Source of the DNA: a virus
Lineage: Duplodnaviria > Heunggongvirae > Uroviricota > Caudoviricetes
Virus record (IMG/VR): IMGVR_UViG_2619619129_000002
DNA: 12,741 nt
Reading direction: 5' to 3' (one strand)
Shown: positions 5,547 to 12,707 of the stretch, piece by piece
Layout: each line of letters starts with the position of its first letter
Numbering within the stretch: position 1 is the first letter of the stretch
Translations under genes and position numbers: made by a program
Notes under the pieces: generated by a model
Databases searched by the model: none
The model's input: the letters and a program-made list of their open reading frames with translations, nothing else
What the model was told of the DNA's origin: nothing

Positions 5547-5843
5547 TTATACCTCTGAATCAATATCAACCTGGTGGTGAGCAATGGTTTCAACCATGTA
5601 CCGGATGTGTTCTGCCATGCGCTCCTGAAACTCAACATCGTCATCAAACGCACGGGTAATGGCTTTTTTGCTGGCCCCGTGGCGTTGCAAATGATCGATG
5701 CATAGCGATTCAAACAGGTGCTGGGGCAGGCCTTTTTCCATGTCGTCTGCCAGTTCTGCCTCTTTCTCTTCACGGGCGATCTGCTGGTAGTGACGCGCCC
5801 AGCTCTGAGCCTCAAGACGATCCTGAATGTAATAAGCGTTCAT
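5547..5843 (-). CDS. gam: Gam RecBCD inhibitor, short form only (98 aa)
   Basis: Translation [21 protein letters not shown]...VDIDSEV matches lambda GamS. An in-frame TAA lies 17 codons upstream with no ATG/GTG/TTG between, so no N-terminally extended form is encoded here. Confidence 0.93.
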
Positions 5844-5918: not shown

Positions 5919-6329
5919 TTAGTGATTGAGGCCGTTACCGCGTCCGTCGAGAAAAACTTCCACGAGCAAATCACGGGTATAAGTGCGCTCGATGCCGCGA
6001 TGCAGATAAAGCCGTCCGCGTAAATTAGCTGATGCAGTCCAGGTACCATCTTTGTGTTTGACCAGCATTCCTGGCATGACCGCACCGCGATTAACGGTCT
6101 GCGTTCCGTAATGTTGATGAACCATAAAAACTCCTGCCCGTAAGCTGGGCTGCTGAACATTTAGAGACTTCTGCGCGTATTCAGGCGGTGGATGGCCGCC
6201 GGTTGTCATAACTAAGCCGCCTCGTTGAAGCGACTGAGGTATAAAGTGTTGTGTTGATTTCAGCTGGTCACACCGACGTTCACGCGTCCGTTTCACCCCT
6301 CGCACTCCCCGAAGCCTGCTGAAATTCAA
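5919..6329 (-). CDS. Hypothetical early protein at the N position (first ORF on the predicted pL transcript); start ambiguous between TTG 6329 (136 aa), ATG 6209 (96 aa) and ATG 6125 (68 aa, best Shine-Dalgarno)
   Basis: The track ORF begins at a TTG with no Shine-Dalgarno sequence. The long form carries an arginine-rich stretch [15 protein letters not shown]. The ATG at 6125 is preceded by GCAGGAG plus 5 nt. The stop coincides with the point where lambda-like sequence resumes. Confidence 0.35.
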
Positions 6330-6340
6330 ACTGCGGATCT

Positions 6341-6392
6341 AAGCGGTCATCGCAACGGTGAAACAGGTGGTTACCGTATCGTTGTGTCGTTG
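6341..6392 (-). promoter_or_regulatory. 52-nt hairpin in the 5' leader of the predicted pL transcript
   Basis: Perfect 11-bp inverted repeat TCATCGCAACG (6341-6351) / CGTTGCGATGA (6382-6392) around a 30-nt spacer that has a central GGTTACC palindrome. It lies just downstream of the predicted pL start. Confidence 0.4.
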
Positions 6393-6394
6393 CG

Positions 6395-6465
6395 ATGAAT
6401 TTATTTAAAACTATAGTTGTTTTATCGTCAACAACAAAAGTTGTTTTATCGGTTGTTCTAAATAT
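6395..6465 (-). promoter_or_regulatory. Leftward early promoter with operators (pL/OL analogue)
   Basis: Minus strand reads gttgTTGACGataaaacaactatagttTTAAAT, almost a copy of the rightward gttgTTGACTaaaaacaaccatagtttTAATCT at 7940-7975. ACAAC/GTTGT half-sites flank and overlap the -35 (6426-6431). Confidence 0.6.
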
Positions 6466-6567
6466 AACTGGTTGTATTTAGGATGGATTTATTTTGTGAC
6501 TTGCATCGCATAGCGATAACTGAAGTGAGGTGTGGTGGTTTTTTGGACGGTATGAGTTATGAGGGGG

Positions 6568-6598
6568 AGGAAAAGAAAACCCGGCGCGGTTGCCGGGT
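6568..6598 (-). terminator. Rho-independent terminator downstream of the lipoprotein gene
   Basis: Minus-strand hairpin CCCGGC-aaccgc-GCCGGG (plus-strand 6580-6597) followed by a U-run (TTTTCTTTT), right after the lipoprotein stop at 6606. Confidence 0.65.
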
Positions 6599-6605
6599 AT
6601 GATTA

Positions 6606-6986
6606 TCAGTCAGCCCAACCTGATTTCGAGTTTATTTGGGTTTCTGACATTATGTATTTCTTAATCGTGTCATCGTTAAAAAGAATAGTAAGTTCTTTTT
6701 TCGTACCGTTCGTTCCATTATGGAATAATCCATAGAATGGAATAAAAGTGGTGCCATTAACTTTTACTTTTGCAAAGGCGTACTTCCAGATCTCGTTTCC
6801 ACTGTCAGTATATGAAACAGCATCAGGAGAACCAAAGTAAGATTTAACCTCATTCTTGGTTGTTTTACCTTCCTGAAGTTTAGACTGGACACTAATTTCA
6901 GTTTCATTTTTGAGTTGCTGGTTGCCTGAAGAAGCACACCCAGCCAATACAGATGCCATCATGGCAGCGATTAGGATTTTTCTCAT
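6606..6986 (-). CDS. Lipoprotein (126 aa), BamE/OsmE (SmpA/OmlA)-like fold suspected
   Basis: N-terminal signal peptide with lipobox LAGC (Cys17); residue +2 is Ala. Motif GKTTKNEVKSYFGSPDAVSYTDSGNEIWKYAF resembles the BamE/OsmE pattern G-x-T-x-x-[QE]-V-x(3)-[LF]-G-x-P ... W-x-Y-x-F. It sits between the repressor gene and pL, the slot rexAB occupies in lambda. Confidence 0.75.
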   Translation of the reverse strand: MRKILIAAMMASVLAGCASSGNQQLKNETEISVQSKLQEGKTTKNEVKSYFGSPDAVSYTDSGNEIWKYAFAKVKVNGTTFIPFYGLFHNGTNGTKKELTILFNDDTIKKYIMSETQINSKSGWAD

Positions 6987-7215
6987 TTTATGTTTCCATT
7001 CATTATAATCAGAAACATCTTAACATAATGATTCGAAATAAAAACCGCTACGAGATAGGGGGACATTTTGCTGACAGTAGCAACAAATCTCAGCTAACAA
7101 CGAGAATATTTACTGAAATATGCAAACAGATTTGGCGTTCTTATAGAGAATTTAGTGCAATATCTAATCCGAGTGGTATAAACCTTAACCTTCGCTCCCT
7201 TAAGTCGTAGATAAA

Positions 7216-7905
7216 TTAACCATGCTTCCTGTACGTCTGCGGCATGCTTCCAATGACCTTACCGAATATGAACACCCGGTTCATCTCGTCTTTCTCGATC
7301 GGGTCCCACGGCGAGTAGCTCTTGTTATCAGAGATAACCAGCAGCTTATCCTTCATCATTTGAAGACGTTTTACATGGGCAGTGTCGTCGTACAGAAACG
7401 CATAGATGCCATCACCGTCGAAAGATTTAACAGTGATATCAACGAACAGCAGGTCACCTGGTTCGATCGTCCCTGACATGCTGTCACCTCGCACGTTAAT
7501 GATGCGGATATTTTCCGCCTTCCTGCCATCGAACATGTGACGAGCATCGTCAAACGAGTACTCAACCGAGCGTAGAACTTCTACAAACTCACGGTTGATT
7601 ACACCTGGCCCGGCACTGACTTCTATATCAAGAACGTCAATTTTGAAGTATTTGGAATGGCTGACAGTTGATTGTATTGGTTGCACTGTACTGTCTGACA
7701 TATTTCCAACGCCAGAAGATAACCATTCTGCGCGCACACCCAAAGCGTTCGCGATCTCCACGATTTTAGTTGTTTGGTTAGCTTTCCCTGTTTCGATTTT
7801 CTGAATAGCAGCCTGGCTAACCCCGACCAAATCCCCAAGCGCCTTTTGTGTAAGGCCTCGCGCTAATCTGGCTTCTTTAAGTCTTTCTGAGAGTGTTGTT
7901 TTCAT
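7216..7905 (-). CDS. CI-like phage repressor (229 aa): N-terminal XRE-type HTH, C-terminal S24 LexA-like autopeptidase
   Basis: HTH segment LTQKALGDLVGVSQAAIQKIETGK; candidate Ala-Gly cleavage site in VSAGPG; S24 catalytic motifs GDSM (Ser) and HVKRL (Lys). Divergently transcribed from the cro-like gene. Not lambda cI by sequence. Confidence 0.9.
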   Translation of the reverse strand: MKTTLSERLKEARLARGLTQKALGDLVGVSQAAIQKIETGKANQTTKIVEIANALGVRAEWLSSGVGNMSDSTVQPIQSTVSHSKYFKIDVLDIEVSAGPGVINREFVEVLRSVEYSFDDARHMFDGRKAENIRIINVRGDSMSGTIEPGDLLFVDITVKSFDGDGIYAFLYDDTAHVKRLQMMKDKLLVISDNKSYSPWDPIEKDEMNRVFIFGKVIGSMPQTYRKHG

Positions 7906-8009
7906 AGATCAAATGTACAACCAAGGTTTTATTTCATCAAACGAAAATGGTTGTTGACTAAAAACAACCATAGTTTTAATCTTGATTCGGATTAACCACG
8001 GAGGTTGTT
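7906..8009. promoter_or_regulatory. Divergent promoter/operator region (OR, pR, and presumably pRM) between the repressor and cro-like genes
   Basis: pR: -35 TTGACT (7946-7951), 17-bp spacer, -10 TAATCT. Operator inverted repeat ATGGTTGT-N9-ACAACCAT overlaps the -35; a further ACAACC-aa-GGTT element lies at about 7918-7931. The repressor ATG follows with no Shine-Dalgarno sequence, which suggests a leaderless mRNA as for lambda cI from pRM. Confidence 0.7.
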
Positions 8010-8240
8010 ATGAACCCAGCAATCAAAACAGCGATCAATATCGTTGGTTCACAAAAGAAACTAGGCGATGCCTGCGAAGTTTCACAGCAGGCCGTCTATA
8101 AGTGGCTTCACAACAAAGCAAAGGTATCCCCTGAACATGTCGGCAGCATTGTTACGGCTACTGGTGGAGTTGTGAAGGCATACCAGATTCGCCCGGATCT
8201 TCCGAAGTTGTTTCCACACACCGAAAAGAACGCAGCTTAA
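8010..8240 (+). CDS. Cro-like small HTH regulator (76 aa), YdaS-type
   Basis: GGAGG Shine-Dalgarno 6 nt upstream of the ATG. First gene rightward from pR. Small protein with an HTH-like segment QKKLGDACEVSQQAVYKWL. Confidence 0.85.
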   Translation: MNPAIKTAINIVGSQKKLGDACEVSQQAVYKWLHNKAKVSPEHVGSIVTATGGVVKAYQIRPDLPKLFPHTEKNAA

Positions 8241-8252
8241 ATTTCCATTTCA

Positions 8253-8265
8253 CGCTCTTTAACAA
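8253..8265 (+). promoter_or_regulatory. boxA-like element (CGCTCTTTAACAA), candidate nutR component
   Basis: Exact match to the GCTCTTTAACAA boxA type (rrn / phage 21 / P22) as I recall it. It lies in the cro-to-next-gene spacer where lambdoid nutR sites sit. No convincing boxB hairpin found next to it. Confidence 0.5.
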
Positions 8266-8309
8266 TAAGCAATCAACTTAACAGTCAATTCAAACTAAAG
8301 GAGTCAATT

Positions 8310-8849
8310 ATGCAACCACTTACATACCAACAGACTAGCGGATTTATTCCGACTGCGGTGATAAATCGTTCTCAAACAAAACAAGCTCCAGGCCACGAAA
8401 AAATCCGTGATGCCGTCCGCGCCTGGTCGGCTGTAGATAATCAGGATGTCGTTGCCGCACTCATTGTGAATGAGTATCGGGAGCAGGGCGACGGCACCAT
8501 CGATTTCCCTGATGATGTCAGCCGTGCACGCCAGAAGCTGTTCCGCTTCCTCGATAACAAATTCGATTCTGAAAAATACCGAAATAACGTGCGTGAACTG
8601 ACCCCGGCAATTCTGGCGGTACTACCGCTGGAATATCGCGGTTACCTGGTTGAGCAGGATAGCTTCATGACTCGGTTGGCTGAAATGGAAAAGGAACTCA
8701 GTGAGGCAAAACAGGCTGTCATTCTCAACGCACCACGCCACCAGAAACTGAAGGAAATGAGTGAAGGTATTGTGTCGATGTTTCGTGTGGACCCGGATCT
8801 GGCTGGTCCATTAATGGCGATGGTGACCACCATGCTGGGGGCAATATGA
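8310..8849 (+). CDS. YdaT-like protein (179 aa) in the cII position
   Basis: AAGGAG Shine-Dalgarno upstream. Occupies the slot between cro and O. Resemblance to the Rac YdaT family is from recall of domain character, not verified. Confidence 0.7.
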   Translation: MQPLTYQQTSGFIPTAVINRSQTKQAPGHEKIRDAVRAWSAVDNQDVVAALIVNEYREQGDGTIDFPDDVSRARQKLFRFLDNKFDSEKYRNNVRELTPAILAVLPLEYRGYLVEQDSFMTRLAEMEKELSEAKQAVILNAPRHQKLKEMSEGIVSMFRVDPDLAGPLMAMVTTMLGAI

Positions 8850-10879: not shown

Positions 10880-11374
10880 ATGAGAAAATTTATTTTAGCC
10901 TTTGTCATAAGTGCCTCGTTTACAGCAAATGCTGGTGTAGAGAAGTTAGGGCCGTGGATAACAAAGTCTGAGATAAATAAAATGACTGACCAGACTGACT
11001 TTGTGGCTCTTAATTTATCACCAGATTCATATAACAAAGCAGGTACTGATCGTGCAACTTCACTGGTGTTGCGTTGTAGTGATAACAAAACAGATGCCTA
11101 TTTATCATTCAATGATTATATGGGTTCGGACAACCCAAGAATTACAGTGCGGTTAGATGGCGGAAAGCCGGTCAAGAGTGTTTGGGGAGGTGGGGAAGGC
11201 GGTGATTCTGCATTTGCTCCACAACCAATACAATTTATAAAGACCTTGGCTAAGCATAAAAAAGCTATTTTTGGGTTTGAACCTTATGGATCAACTATGC
11301 AAGTAGTTGAGTTTGACTTGTCTGAGATTGATAAGGTTGTGGAAAAAATTTCACAGTCTTGCAATTGGAAATGA
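10880..11374 (+). CDS. Secreted or periplasmic protein of unknown function (164 aa) with a cleavable signal peptide
   Basis: AAGGAG Shine-Dalgarno 8 nt upstream. N-terminus MRKFILAFVISASFTANA with an A-x-A signal peptidase I site before Gly19. Two Cys residues (C66, C161). AT-rich codon usage by eye. Candidate promoter upstream (GATAAT -10-like at about 10842) and terminator downstream. Confidence 0.75.
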   Translation: MRKFILAFVISASFTANAGVEKLGPWITKSEINKMTDQTDFVALNLSPDSYNKAGTDRATSLVLRCSDNKTDAYLSFNDYMGSDNPRITVRLDGGKPVKSVWGGGEGGDSAFAPQPIQFIKTLAKHKKAIFGFEPYGSTMQVVEFDLSEIDKVVEKISQSCNWK

Positions 11375-12009: not shown

Positions 12010-12513
12010 TTATTGATAGTGTTTTATGTTCAGATAATGCCCGATGATTTTGTCATGCAGCTCCACCGATTTTGAGAACGACAGCGACTTCCGTCCCAGC
12101 CGTGCCAGGTGCTGCCTCAGATTCAGGTTATGCCGCTCAATTCGCTGCGTATATCGCTTGCTGATTACGTGCAGCTTTCCCTTCAGGCGGGATTCATACA
12201 GTGGCCAGCCATCCGTCATCCATATCACCACGTCAAAGGGTGACAGCAGGCTCATAAGACGCCCCAGCGTCGCCATAGTGCGTTCACCGAATACGTGCGC
12301 AACAACCGTCTTCCGGAGCCTGTCATACGCGTAAAACAGCCAGCGCTGGCGCGATTTAGCCCCGACATAGCCCCACTGTTCGTCCATTTCCGCGCAGACG
12401 ATGACGTCACTGCCCGGCTGTATGCGCGAGGTTACCGACTGCGGCCTGAGTTTTTTAAGTGACGTAAAATCGTGTTGAGGCCAACGCCCATAATGCGGGC
12501 AGTTGCCCGGCAT
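12010..12513 (-). CDS. insB: IS1 InsB (transposase C-terminal frame, 167 aa)
   Basis: Translation [64 protein letters not shown]... matches IS1 InsB. Confidence 0.9.
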
Positions 12514-12707
12514 CCAACGCCATTCATGGCCATATCAATGATTTTCTGGTGCGTACCGGGTTGAGAAGCGGTGTAAGTGAACTGCAGTTGCCATGTTTTA
12601 CGGCAGTGAGAGCAGAGATAGCGCTGATGTCCGGCAGTGCTTTTGCCGTTACGCACCACCCCGTCAGTAGCTGAACAGGAGGGACAGCTGATAGAAACAG
12701 AAGCCAC
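12432..12707 (-). CDS. insA: IS1 InsA (91 aa, zinc-finger/HTH regulator and N-terminal part of the InsAB' transposase)
   Basis: Translation [91 protein letters not shown] matches IS1 InsA. Confidence 0.9.

Follow-up and report, generated by a model that had tools for sequence, protein, structure and literature searches.

The window analyzed here, a stretch of 12,741 nucleotides from the Caudoviricetes virus record IMGVR_UViG_2619619129_000002, contains the left arm of a lambdoid/Rac-like Escherichia coli prophage together with its immunity region, as read from the order of its open reading frames (ORFs) and from PHROG matches. Next to the repressor gene cI lies a gene for a 126-residue lipoprotein precursor of the SEN1984 family, PHROG 3135 (6606–6986, minus strand, with its TGA stop codon at 6606–6608). 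We tentatively propose that this is a moron-type accessory gene whose product would bind a conserved component of the cell envelope and, as the most likely effect, would exclude superinfecting phage. The feature had been singled out in an original prediction made from the DNA letters; it is real and was largely described correctly. The family is already catalogued, and comparative data refine the original description.

The precursor begins with MRKILIAAMMASVLAGC (ORF translation) and is identical to WP_032201141.1, a record named “outer membrane protein assembly factor BamE”. A type II signal peptide, read directly from the sequence, occupies codons 1–17 (6936–6986, minus strand) and ends in the lipobox L14-A15-G16-C17 (6936–6947, minus strand). 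In an alignment of 34 members, G16, C17, S19, S20, G21, and N22 are invariant, which gives the motif SSGN after the cysteine, and the C-terminal residues G123, W124, A125, and D126 (GWAD) are invariant as well. A regular expression for the lipobox also matches 126 of 150 distant cluster representatives. The intact ORF and the invariance of G16 and C17 bear out the claim of a 126-residue lipoprotein with the lipobox LAGC and a lipidated Cys17. Under the Lol rule of E. coli, a lipoprotein whose +2 residue is other than aspartate is sorted to the outer membrane. The +2 residue here is alanine, so outer-membrane sorting is predicted, and an outer-membrane location is what these sequence rules indicate.

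The mature protein of about 110 residues is a single BamE/BLIP-type α-β protein-binding domain with a conserved, family-specific hairpin insertion. The BamE/SmpA_OmlA-like part spans residues 35–111 (6654–6884, minus strand). The Pfam BamE profile (PF04355) matches it with an E-value of 1.2e-4 and 22.2 bits, under the gathering cut-off of 23.2 bits, and is matched by 65 of 79 diverse relatives at E ≤ 0.01. When the family profile is aligned to E. coli BamE with hhalign, the probability is 92.7%. These matches confirm the BamE-like motif that had been claimed, and the profile and structure searches that had been suggested as a check on it support a BamE-type α-α-β-β-β fold, with a Pfam score just below threshold. 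OsmE is a further fold and profile relative of the family.

Homology to BamE holds at the superfamily level only. Identity to BamE is 23% (BLASTP), and the 13-residue insertion (FIPFYGLFHNG) and the C-terminal GWAD are conserved within the family and do not occur in BamE. Six BamE residues are reported to be important for contact with BamA or BamD, namely Y28, Y37, L63, M64, D66, and R78 (bioRxiv 10.1101/2024.10.31.621230), and none of them is kept in the hhalign alignment: Y28 and Y37 have no counterpart, while L63 is replaced by D, M64 by A, D66 by S, and R78 by A. Those portions of the E. coli BamE sequence used for this comparison that are present in the PDB BamE alignment agree with that alignment. 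What the two do share near the lipid anchor is a Gly-Asn pair, near-invariant in the family, that aligns with G35-N36 of BamE (BLASTP). Because of the low identity, the lost contact residues, and the family-specific insertion and C-terminus, the protein is best described as carrying a BamE-superfamily domain without being BamE. Identity with the host BamE is rejected on these grounds and on that of the sub-threshold Pfam score, and the product name common in databases, “outer membrane protein assembly factor BamE”, is an over-annotation.

The original prediction could not, from sequence alone, assign the protein to a described family, and on this point it needs correction. The phrog_3135 profile is matched at an E-value of 1.8e-47, with residues 1–124 aligned to positions 1–114 of its 114 positions, and RefSeq names the product of DNA with 99.8% identity a “SEN1984 family lipoprotein”, where older records say BamE. 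The protein has the features of this family, which are a precursor of about 126 residues, a lipobox, SSGN after the cysteine, and a C-terminal GWAD. A scan of the protein against NCBIfam release 20.0 returned no SEN1984-family model; its matches were at the level of the signal peptide (Ag473, TrsH, YgdI/YgdR, and OsmE), all far under their cut-offs. The namesake SEN1984 is a gene of ROD21, an excisable and mobilizable pathogenicity island of Salmonella Enteritidis. A literature search on the family turned up only this gene, with a Phyre2 prediction of a BamE-like structure, and no functional study was found in the literature on PhiR phages, BamE-like phage proteins, or OmlA prophage lipoproteins.

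Selection on the gene was computed from 70 unique coding sequences. For the mature part, the median nonsynonymous divergence (dN) is 0.026 and the median synonymous divergence (dS) is 1.21, with a dN/dS of 0.023, compared to 0.33 for the signal-peptide segment. This pattern of substitution points clearly to a functional gene and to a tightly constrained protein surface. Such tight constraint on the mature protein in turn suggests a conserved binding partner.

The position of the gene is defined by its operators. An OL cluster of repeats (6405–6481) and an OR cluster between cI and cro (7917–7979) have repeats in common: the OL cluster contains the repeats D1, D3, I1, I3, I9, and I10, and the OR cluster contains D5 and inverted matches to OL. 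These operator-like repeats include a 19-nucleotide pair with 95% complementarity. Since the repeats at 6405–6481 match those at 7917–7979, the lipoprotein gene lies inside the interval from cI to OL. A candidate leftward promoter pL is formed by TTGACG (6426–6431) and TTAAAT (6403–6408) with a 17-nucleotide spacer; its hexamers were read from the sequence and its role is putative. The ORFs and the operator repeats agree with the original placement of the gene in the slot between cI and the leftward promoter, co-oriented with cI, where lambda carries rexAB. The region between cI and pL/N is a common moron site and accessory hotspot (Owen et al., PMC7067206). As a separate observation, a second promoter-like site lies inside OL (6390–6417, plus strand; TTGCGA, a 16-nucleotide spacer, and TATAGT); it points rightward, antisense to the lipoprotein gene and toward that gene's 3′ end, and may be due to chance.

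An intrinsic terminator (stem ACCCGGC, loop AACCGC, stem GCCGGGT, then TTTCTTTT; 6569–6598, minus strand) closes the unit formed by cI and the lipoprotein gene. Its stem-loop occupies 6579–6598, with a T-run to about 6569, and folds at −14 kcal/mol (z = −3.9). Phages PhiR34_1 and Turner lack the lipoprotein gene but match the window in cI, in the operators and terminator, and in the left arm, and in PhiR34_1 homology picks up exactly at the terminator, which there stands about 130 bp past the cI stop. A homologous terminator after cI in a phage that lacks the gene means that the immunity transcription unit ends here and that the lipoprotein gene lies inside it. The terminator that had been assigned to the gene is therefore real, but it is not private to it.

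Between the cI stop and the ATG of the lipoprotein gene lies an AT-rich spacer of 229 bp (6987–7215, minus strand; 34% GC). Only the 45–60 nucleotides nearest the ATG are common with copies of the gene in other contexts. The distal ~170 bp (about 7045–7215) were considered as a remnant common to other contexts, and this was rejected, as they occur in the E. coli lineage only. The segment 7030–7085 folds no better than shuffled sequences. In other genera, the lipoprotein gene begins 48–75 bp past the stop of homologous cI genes, which argues that the linkage of cI and the lipoprotein gene is old and that the intergenic DNA was remodeled. The spacer had been taken as a sign of independent acquisition; its existence and AT-richness stand, but recent independent acquisition does not follow from the data.

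A moron in the sense of Juhala and Hendrix is extra DNA of deviant composition that has its own promoter and terminator and is expressed from the repressed prophage (PMC3594210). The gene is extra DNA in that it is present in phage PhiR26_1 (PV340555), which is 99.8% identical to window 6300–8300 and in which the ORF is annotated “putative lipoprotein”, and absent from PhiR34_1 and Turner with the same immunity. Its base composition deviates, with a GC content of 37.8% in the coding sequence and 34.1% in the spacer against 47.0% in cI (46.9% in the whole window). As for its own signals, there is a conserved candidate extended −10 element, and there is the terminator, which is real and also follows cI in PhiR34_1.

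This candidate extended −10, TGTTAAGAT, is at 7017–7025 on the minus strand, with the hexamer TAAGAT at 7017–7022 and a predicted start near 7010, and lies about 39 nucleotides before the ATG. Of 65 distinct upstream regions, 41 have the pattern TGnTAnnnT at a distance of 38–51 nucleotides from the ATG, compared to 4.0 ± 1.9 in shuffled sequences, a contrast that is inflated by relatedness. When contexts are compared, the element is kept where the flanking sequence differs, and in Citrobacter copies it is accompanied by a TTGACC −35 at 16 nucleotides and preceded by a terminator. The candidate promoter that the original prediction placed on a TATAAT at 7003–7008 fared less well. The hexamer is present one base away (7002–7007, minus strand), as part of the palindrome ATTATAAT in the predicted 5′ untranslated region (UTR), but it is not a conserved promoter element. 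It was rejected as a promoter because no usable −35 accompanies it, transcripts from it would have a leader of about 10 nucleotides, and most homologues read TGCAAT; a promoter scan at the palindrome gave a call on the plus strand only and none on the minus strand.

Translation signals are found close to the start codon, with a Shine-Dalgarno sequence GGAAA (6993–6997, minus strand) 6 nucleotides before the ATG; GGAAA or GGGAT is kept in homologues. The predicted 5′ leader (6987–7016, minus strand) can fold into a hairpin (GUUUCUG...UGGAAAC) with the Shine-Dalgarno sequence as its 3′ arm, and tail-slot copies, described below, have UUAUCCC...GGGAUGA in its place (alignment A5). Covariation in this hairpin is weak, with 76.8% pairing compared to 72.9% for shuffled alignments, of which 16 in 500 reach the observed value, and for this reason it is not claimed as a regulatory element of the 5′ UTR.

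Two routes of expression are likely in the window. The scan for terminators found no terminator-like site in the spacer (6987–7215), and with no such site separating the two genes, read-through from the cI promoter is proposed. This read-through (from pRM), together with the gene's own candidate extended −10 promoter, likely supplies expression in the lysogen. Relatives give the best evidence for this: the gap after cI is at most 80 bp in 25 of 99 surveyed loci, which amount to 15 distinct upstream regions, and in 12 of these 15 the gene begins about 48 bp past the cI stop without the promoter motif. The short gap and the missing motif argue that in these relatives the gene is co-transcribed with cI, and hence expressed in lysogens.

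The family is widespread. Among 1.84 billion cluster representatives, 1313 relatives (E ≤ 1e-3, clusters at 50% identity) are found across Proteobacteria, almost all of them lipoproteins some 130 residues long with Gly-Asn shortly after the lipidated cysteine. Of 5426 complete E. coli genomes, 78 contain DNA of the module (6560–7215), and it is chromosomal every time. The survey of gene contexts covered 99 enterobacterial phage or prophage loci, which are not independent of one another (80 IMG/VR contigs and 19 GTDB genome contigs). In 57 of them, the gene lies downstream of an S24 repressor gene and co-oriented with it, and these repressors belong to at least five families at 60% identity. 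About 30 loci have it in the tail operon instead, with a DUF6246 chaperone-like gene on one side and the tape-measure gene on the other, and further ORFs for secreted cargo are often present there. A few P22-like contigs carry it beside Arc/antirepressor-like genes, gtrABC, and a tailspike gene, as judged by their N-terminal sequences. Citrobacter Rac-like prophages carry it past the repressor gene and ahead of kilR and recE, and in Salmonella phage S107 the order is cI, bstA, lipoprotein gene, N.

The family also extends beyond phages. In addition to the genomic island ROD21, four Moraxella species (L051, L054, L061, and L071; about 5950–6381) have a co-oriented member between atpG and atpD, and Pseudovibrio has a chromosomal member near pheST. 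In two Paraburkholderia genomes (L042, 5881–6384; L046, 5992–6384), a member stands at the place of bcpO in a bcpAIOB-type locus for contact-dependent growth inhibition (CDI), following a BcpA-like exoprotein with filamentous hemagglutinin repeats (Fil_haemagg_2, NxxLYN motif). In L042 a ShlB/FhaC-type transporter gene directly follows the member, whereas ORF calling gave no such gene downstream of it in L046. No gene neighbor common to the whole family was found, and synteny holds only within genera.

Several smaller observations were made in the surveyed loci. In four tail-slot loci (L126, L128, L132, and L140; 5400–6500), one or two more cargo ORFs with a signal peptide or lipobox come after the lipoprotein gene and ahead of the tape-measure gene, and the tail slot looks like a small hotspot of secreted accessory proteins. 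Many cI-slot loci have a small, conserved opposite-strand ORF of 69–97 residues (phrog_3975) after the lipoprotein gene (L011, 6423–6716; L013, 6422–6631; L003, 4423–4650; L006–L010, 8413–8637), which is absent from the window. The defense gene bstA of S107 (L003, 2989–3911) is split into ORFs of 255 and 62 residues; the probable cause is a frameshift or a mistake in the assembly.

Under the proposed mechanism, the lipoprotein would be expressed in the lysogen by read-through from the cI promoter and probably from its own extended −10. It would be anchored to the outer membrane with its domain on the periplasmic side, where the BamE-fold domain would bind a conserved envelope component and change what crosses the envelope. 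Superinfecting phage, and possibly other imported toxins, would then be excluded at a step common to phages with different receptors. Fold relatives that act by binding proteins are known, namely BamE, BLIP, and BtiO, an immunity protein of the type VI secretion system (T6SS). The blocking of one specific receptor is unlikely because proteins with ~80% identity are found in siphoviruses, in P22-like podoviruses, and on a tail-less island, and a shared envelope component is a more plausible target than a single receptor. The exclusion step itself is our best guess from the position of the gene and its conservation. It is favored by the fact that the cI slot and the tail slot are best known for exclusion and defense genes.

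Other observations weigh against exclusion. No PADLOC-DB v2 family matched the lipoprotein at E ≤ 1, and the similarity to the exclusion lipoprotein Cor (phrog_1119, E = 0.046) covers residues 1–29, which is the signal peptide only. The literature found on the family consists of the Phyre2 prediction for SEN1984. The gene's candidate promoter is a motif match only, and its enrichment is inflated by relatedness. Very strong purifying selection is unlike the rapid change common in genes of phage conflict, and a role in host physiology fits it equally well. Finally, the domain is not intrinsically anti-phage, since members are found outside phages in ROD21, Moraxella, Pseudovibrio, and Paraburkholderia CDI loci. 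A bolder form of the proposal is doubtful in our estimate. It holds that the family is a new class of envelope-level exclusion factors, present on many unrelated mobile elements (lambdoid, Rac-like, and P22-like prophages, tail modules of siphoviruses, and genomic islands), in which a BamE-derived domain binds a conserved machine of the outer membrane, be it a protein of the Omp85 family or some other envelope component found universally. Such a class may close a step in macromolecule entry common to phages with different receptors, and possibly to CDI and other toxins.

The main alternative, a conversion factor for host fitness or virulence, which would act in envelope robustness, stress or serum resistance, or colonization with no effect on incoming phage, is on balance unlikely but deserves serious consideration. 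The chromosomal members in the Moraxella atp operon and in Pseudovibrio and the namesake on an excisable pathogenicity island are consistent with it. A dN/dS of 0.023 suits a housekeeping-like interaction, and OsmE, the fold and profile relative, is a stress lipoprotein. The Bor protein of lambda confers serum resistance. A precedent for such a role comes from bor and lom, fitness genes that are expressed from the lambda prophage (PMC7067206). However, no phenotype is reported for SEN1984 itself, and both of the slots favored by phages are known chiefly for exclusion and defense genes; the two roles could also coexist.

The homology to BamE, and its name on many records, raise the possibility of a BamE paralogue that docks on the β-barrel assembly machinery (BAM) or another Omp85 transporter and retunes the assembly of outer membrane proteins such as porins and phage receptors. 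The near-invariant Gly-Asn at the position of G35-N36 would fit this, as would the L042 member directly before a transporter of the Omp85 superfamily, given that BcpO lipoproteins are required for full BcpA function (PMC3415462). Against these points stand the loss of the BamA- and BamD-contact residues, the Pfam score under the gathering cut-off, and an insertion and C-terminal extension foreign to BamE, and canonical BcpO proteins have only 73–74 residues. We regard such docking as improbable. Equally little weight is given to a periplasmic inhibitor or immunity protein whose BamE/BLIP-fold domain would neutralize an enzyme or toxin that reaches the periplasm, for example an effector of a T6SS or CDI system, a colicin, or a peptidoglycan hydrolase from the tail of an infecting phage. 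It is scarcely credible that the gene is a decaying or silent passenger ORF: although the prophage is truncated and flanked by insertion sequences (ISs), and some relatives are truncated too, the ORF is intact, its lipobox and upstream motif are conserved, and it has hundreds of full-length homologues across genera with a dN/dS of 0.023, so the idea is already contradicted by the conservation data.

The proposed exclusion lipoprotein can be compared with several known systems. SEN1984 belongs to the same family and has a precursor of about 126 residues, a lipobox, and a predicted BamE-like fold, but is encoded on a mobilizable island and not in a prophage. BamE is likewise a lipoprotein, a subunit of the BAM complex, from which the phage family differs in being encoded by mobile elements, in its 23% identity, and in its insertion and GWAD. 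Lambda rexAB and Salmonella BTP1 bstA share the slot and the orientation, have no terminator after cI, and are transcribed with cI in lysogens. They have no sequence or structural kinship with the present gene, and act in abortive infection in the cytoplasm or inner membrane, whereas the present product is an exported lipoprotein.

In HK97, the tail chaperone gene and the tape-measure gene flank gp15, a moron for superinfection exclusion (PMC3594210). The lipoprotein gene, with promoter motif and flanking terminators, holds this slot in about 30% of the phage loci. The gp15 product resembles YebO, resides in the inner membrane, and has no sequence relationship to the lipoprotein, and the window copy is in the cI slot and not in the tail slot. 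Temperate Pseudomonas phages (B3, PP9W2, and the D14 series) also carry accessory genes for BamE-fold lipoproteins with an SmpA/OmlA domain, for example beside the integrase gene; these proteins are shorter, with ~31–38% identity over part of their length. Cor (of phi80, N15, and HK022) and T5 Llp, on which the original prediction modeled its mechanism, are small phage lipoproteins targeted to the outer membrane, as is predicted for the present protein, and they block FhuA. Cor is expressed from the prophage, and T5 Llp is expressed early in lytic infection. Neither shows homology past the signal peptide, and the present family differs in that it is found in phages with unrelated tails (siphovirus and P22-like podovirus) and on non-phage elements.

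An accessory gene in the slot between cI and pL is a well-known type of element, and finding one here is not surprising. It is nevertheless a good and tractable candidate for a new lysogenic-conversion function. The family is a frequent one, with hundreds of homologues in Enterobacterales, repeatedly in classic lysogenic-conversion slots and under strong constraint, and the BamE labels on many records mislead genome annotation. PhiR26_1 with the gene and PhiR34_1 without it share an immunity region and are a natural control pair, with E. coli K-12 MG1655 given as host in the record of each. A phenotype, if found, would give a role to the whole family, and without one the annotation is still corrected.

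The remaining features of the window are those of a prophage remnant. The whole window was found in none of the complete E. coli genomes of the collection, with a best coverage of 87%. An IS3-family orfA fragment (10–231) forms one flank and a complete IS1 (insA/insB, 12010–12707) the other. The left arm has int (544–1614) followed by xis, exo, and bet, then gam (5547–5843), and then kil (within 5919–6329, phrog_294 match). The CI-like repressor gene (7216–7905, minus strand) encodes a helix-turn-helix domain and an S24 peptidase, and is named cI or S24 family peptidase in PhiR26_1 and RefSeq. Past it lie cro (8010–8240, plus strand, from the ORF list) and a CII/YdaT-like gene (8310–8849), with O and P next, and the prophage is broken off past a truncated ren.

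Two side observations concern these flanking regions. No N-like antiterminator ORF was seen between OL/pL and kil (window 6130–6400), where an apparently non-coding leader of ~270 nucleotides precedes kil; together with the YdaT/CII-like nature of “cII”, this suggests that the early region is closer to Rac than to lambda. Between the truncated ren and IS1, a 164-residue protein with a signal peptide is encoded (10880–11374, plus strand), and it has a borderline match to the Pfam family VasI of the T6SS (26.7 bits compared to a cut-off of 26.5).

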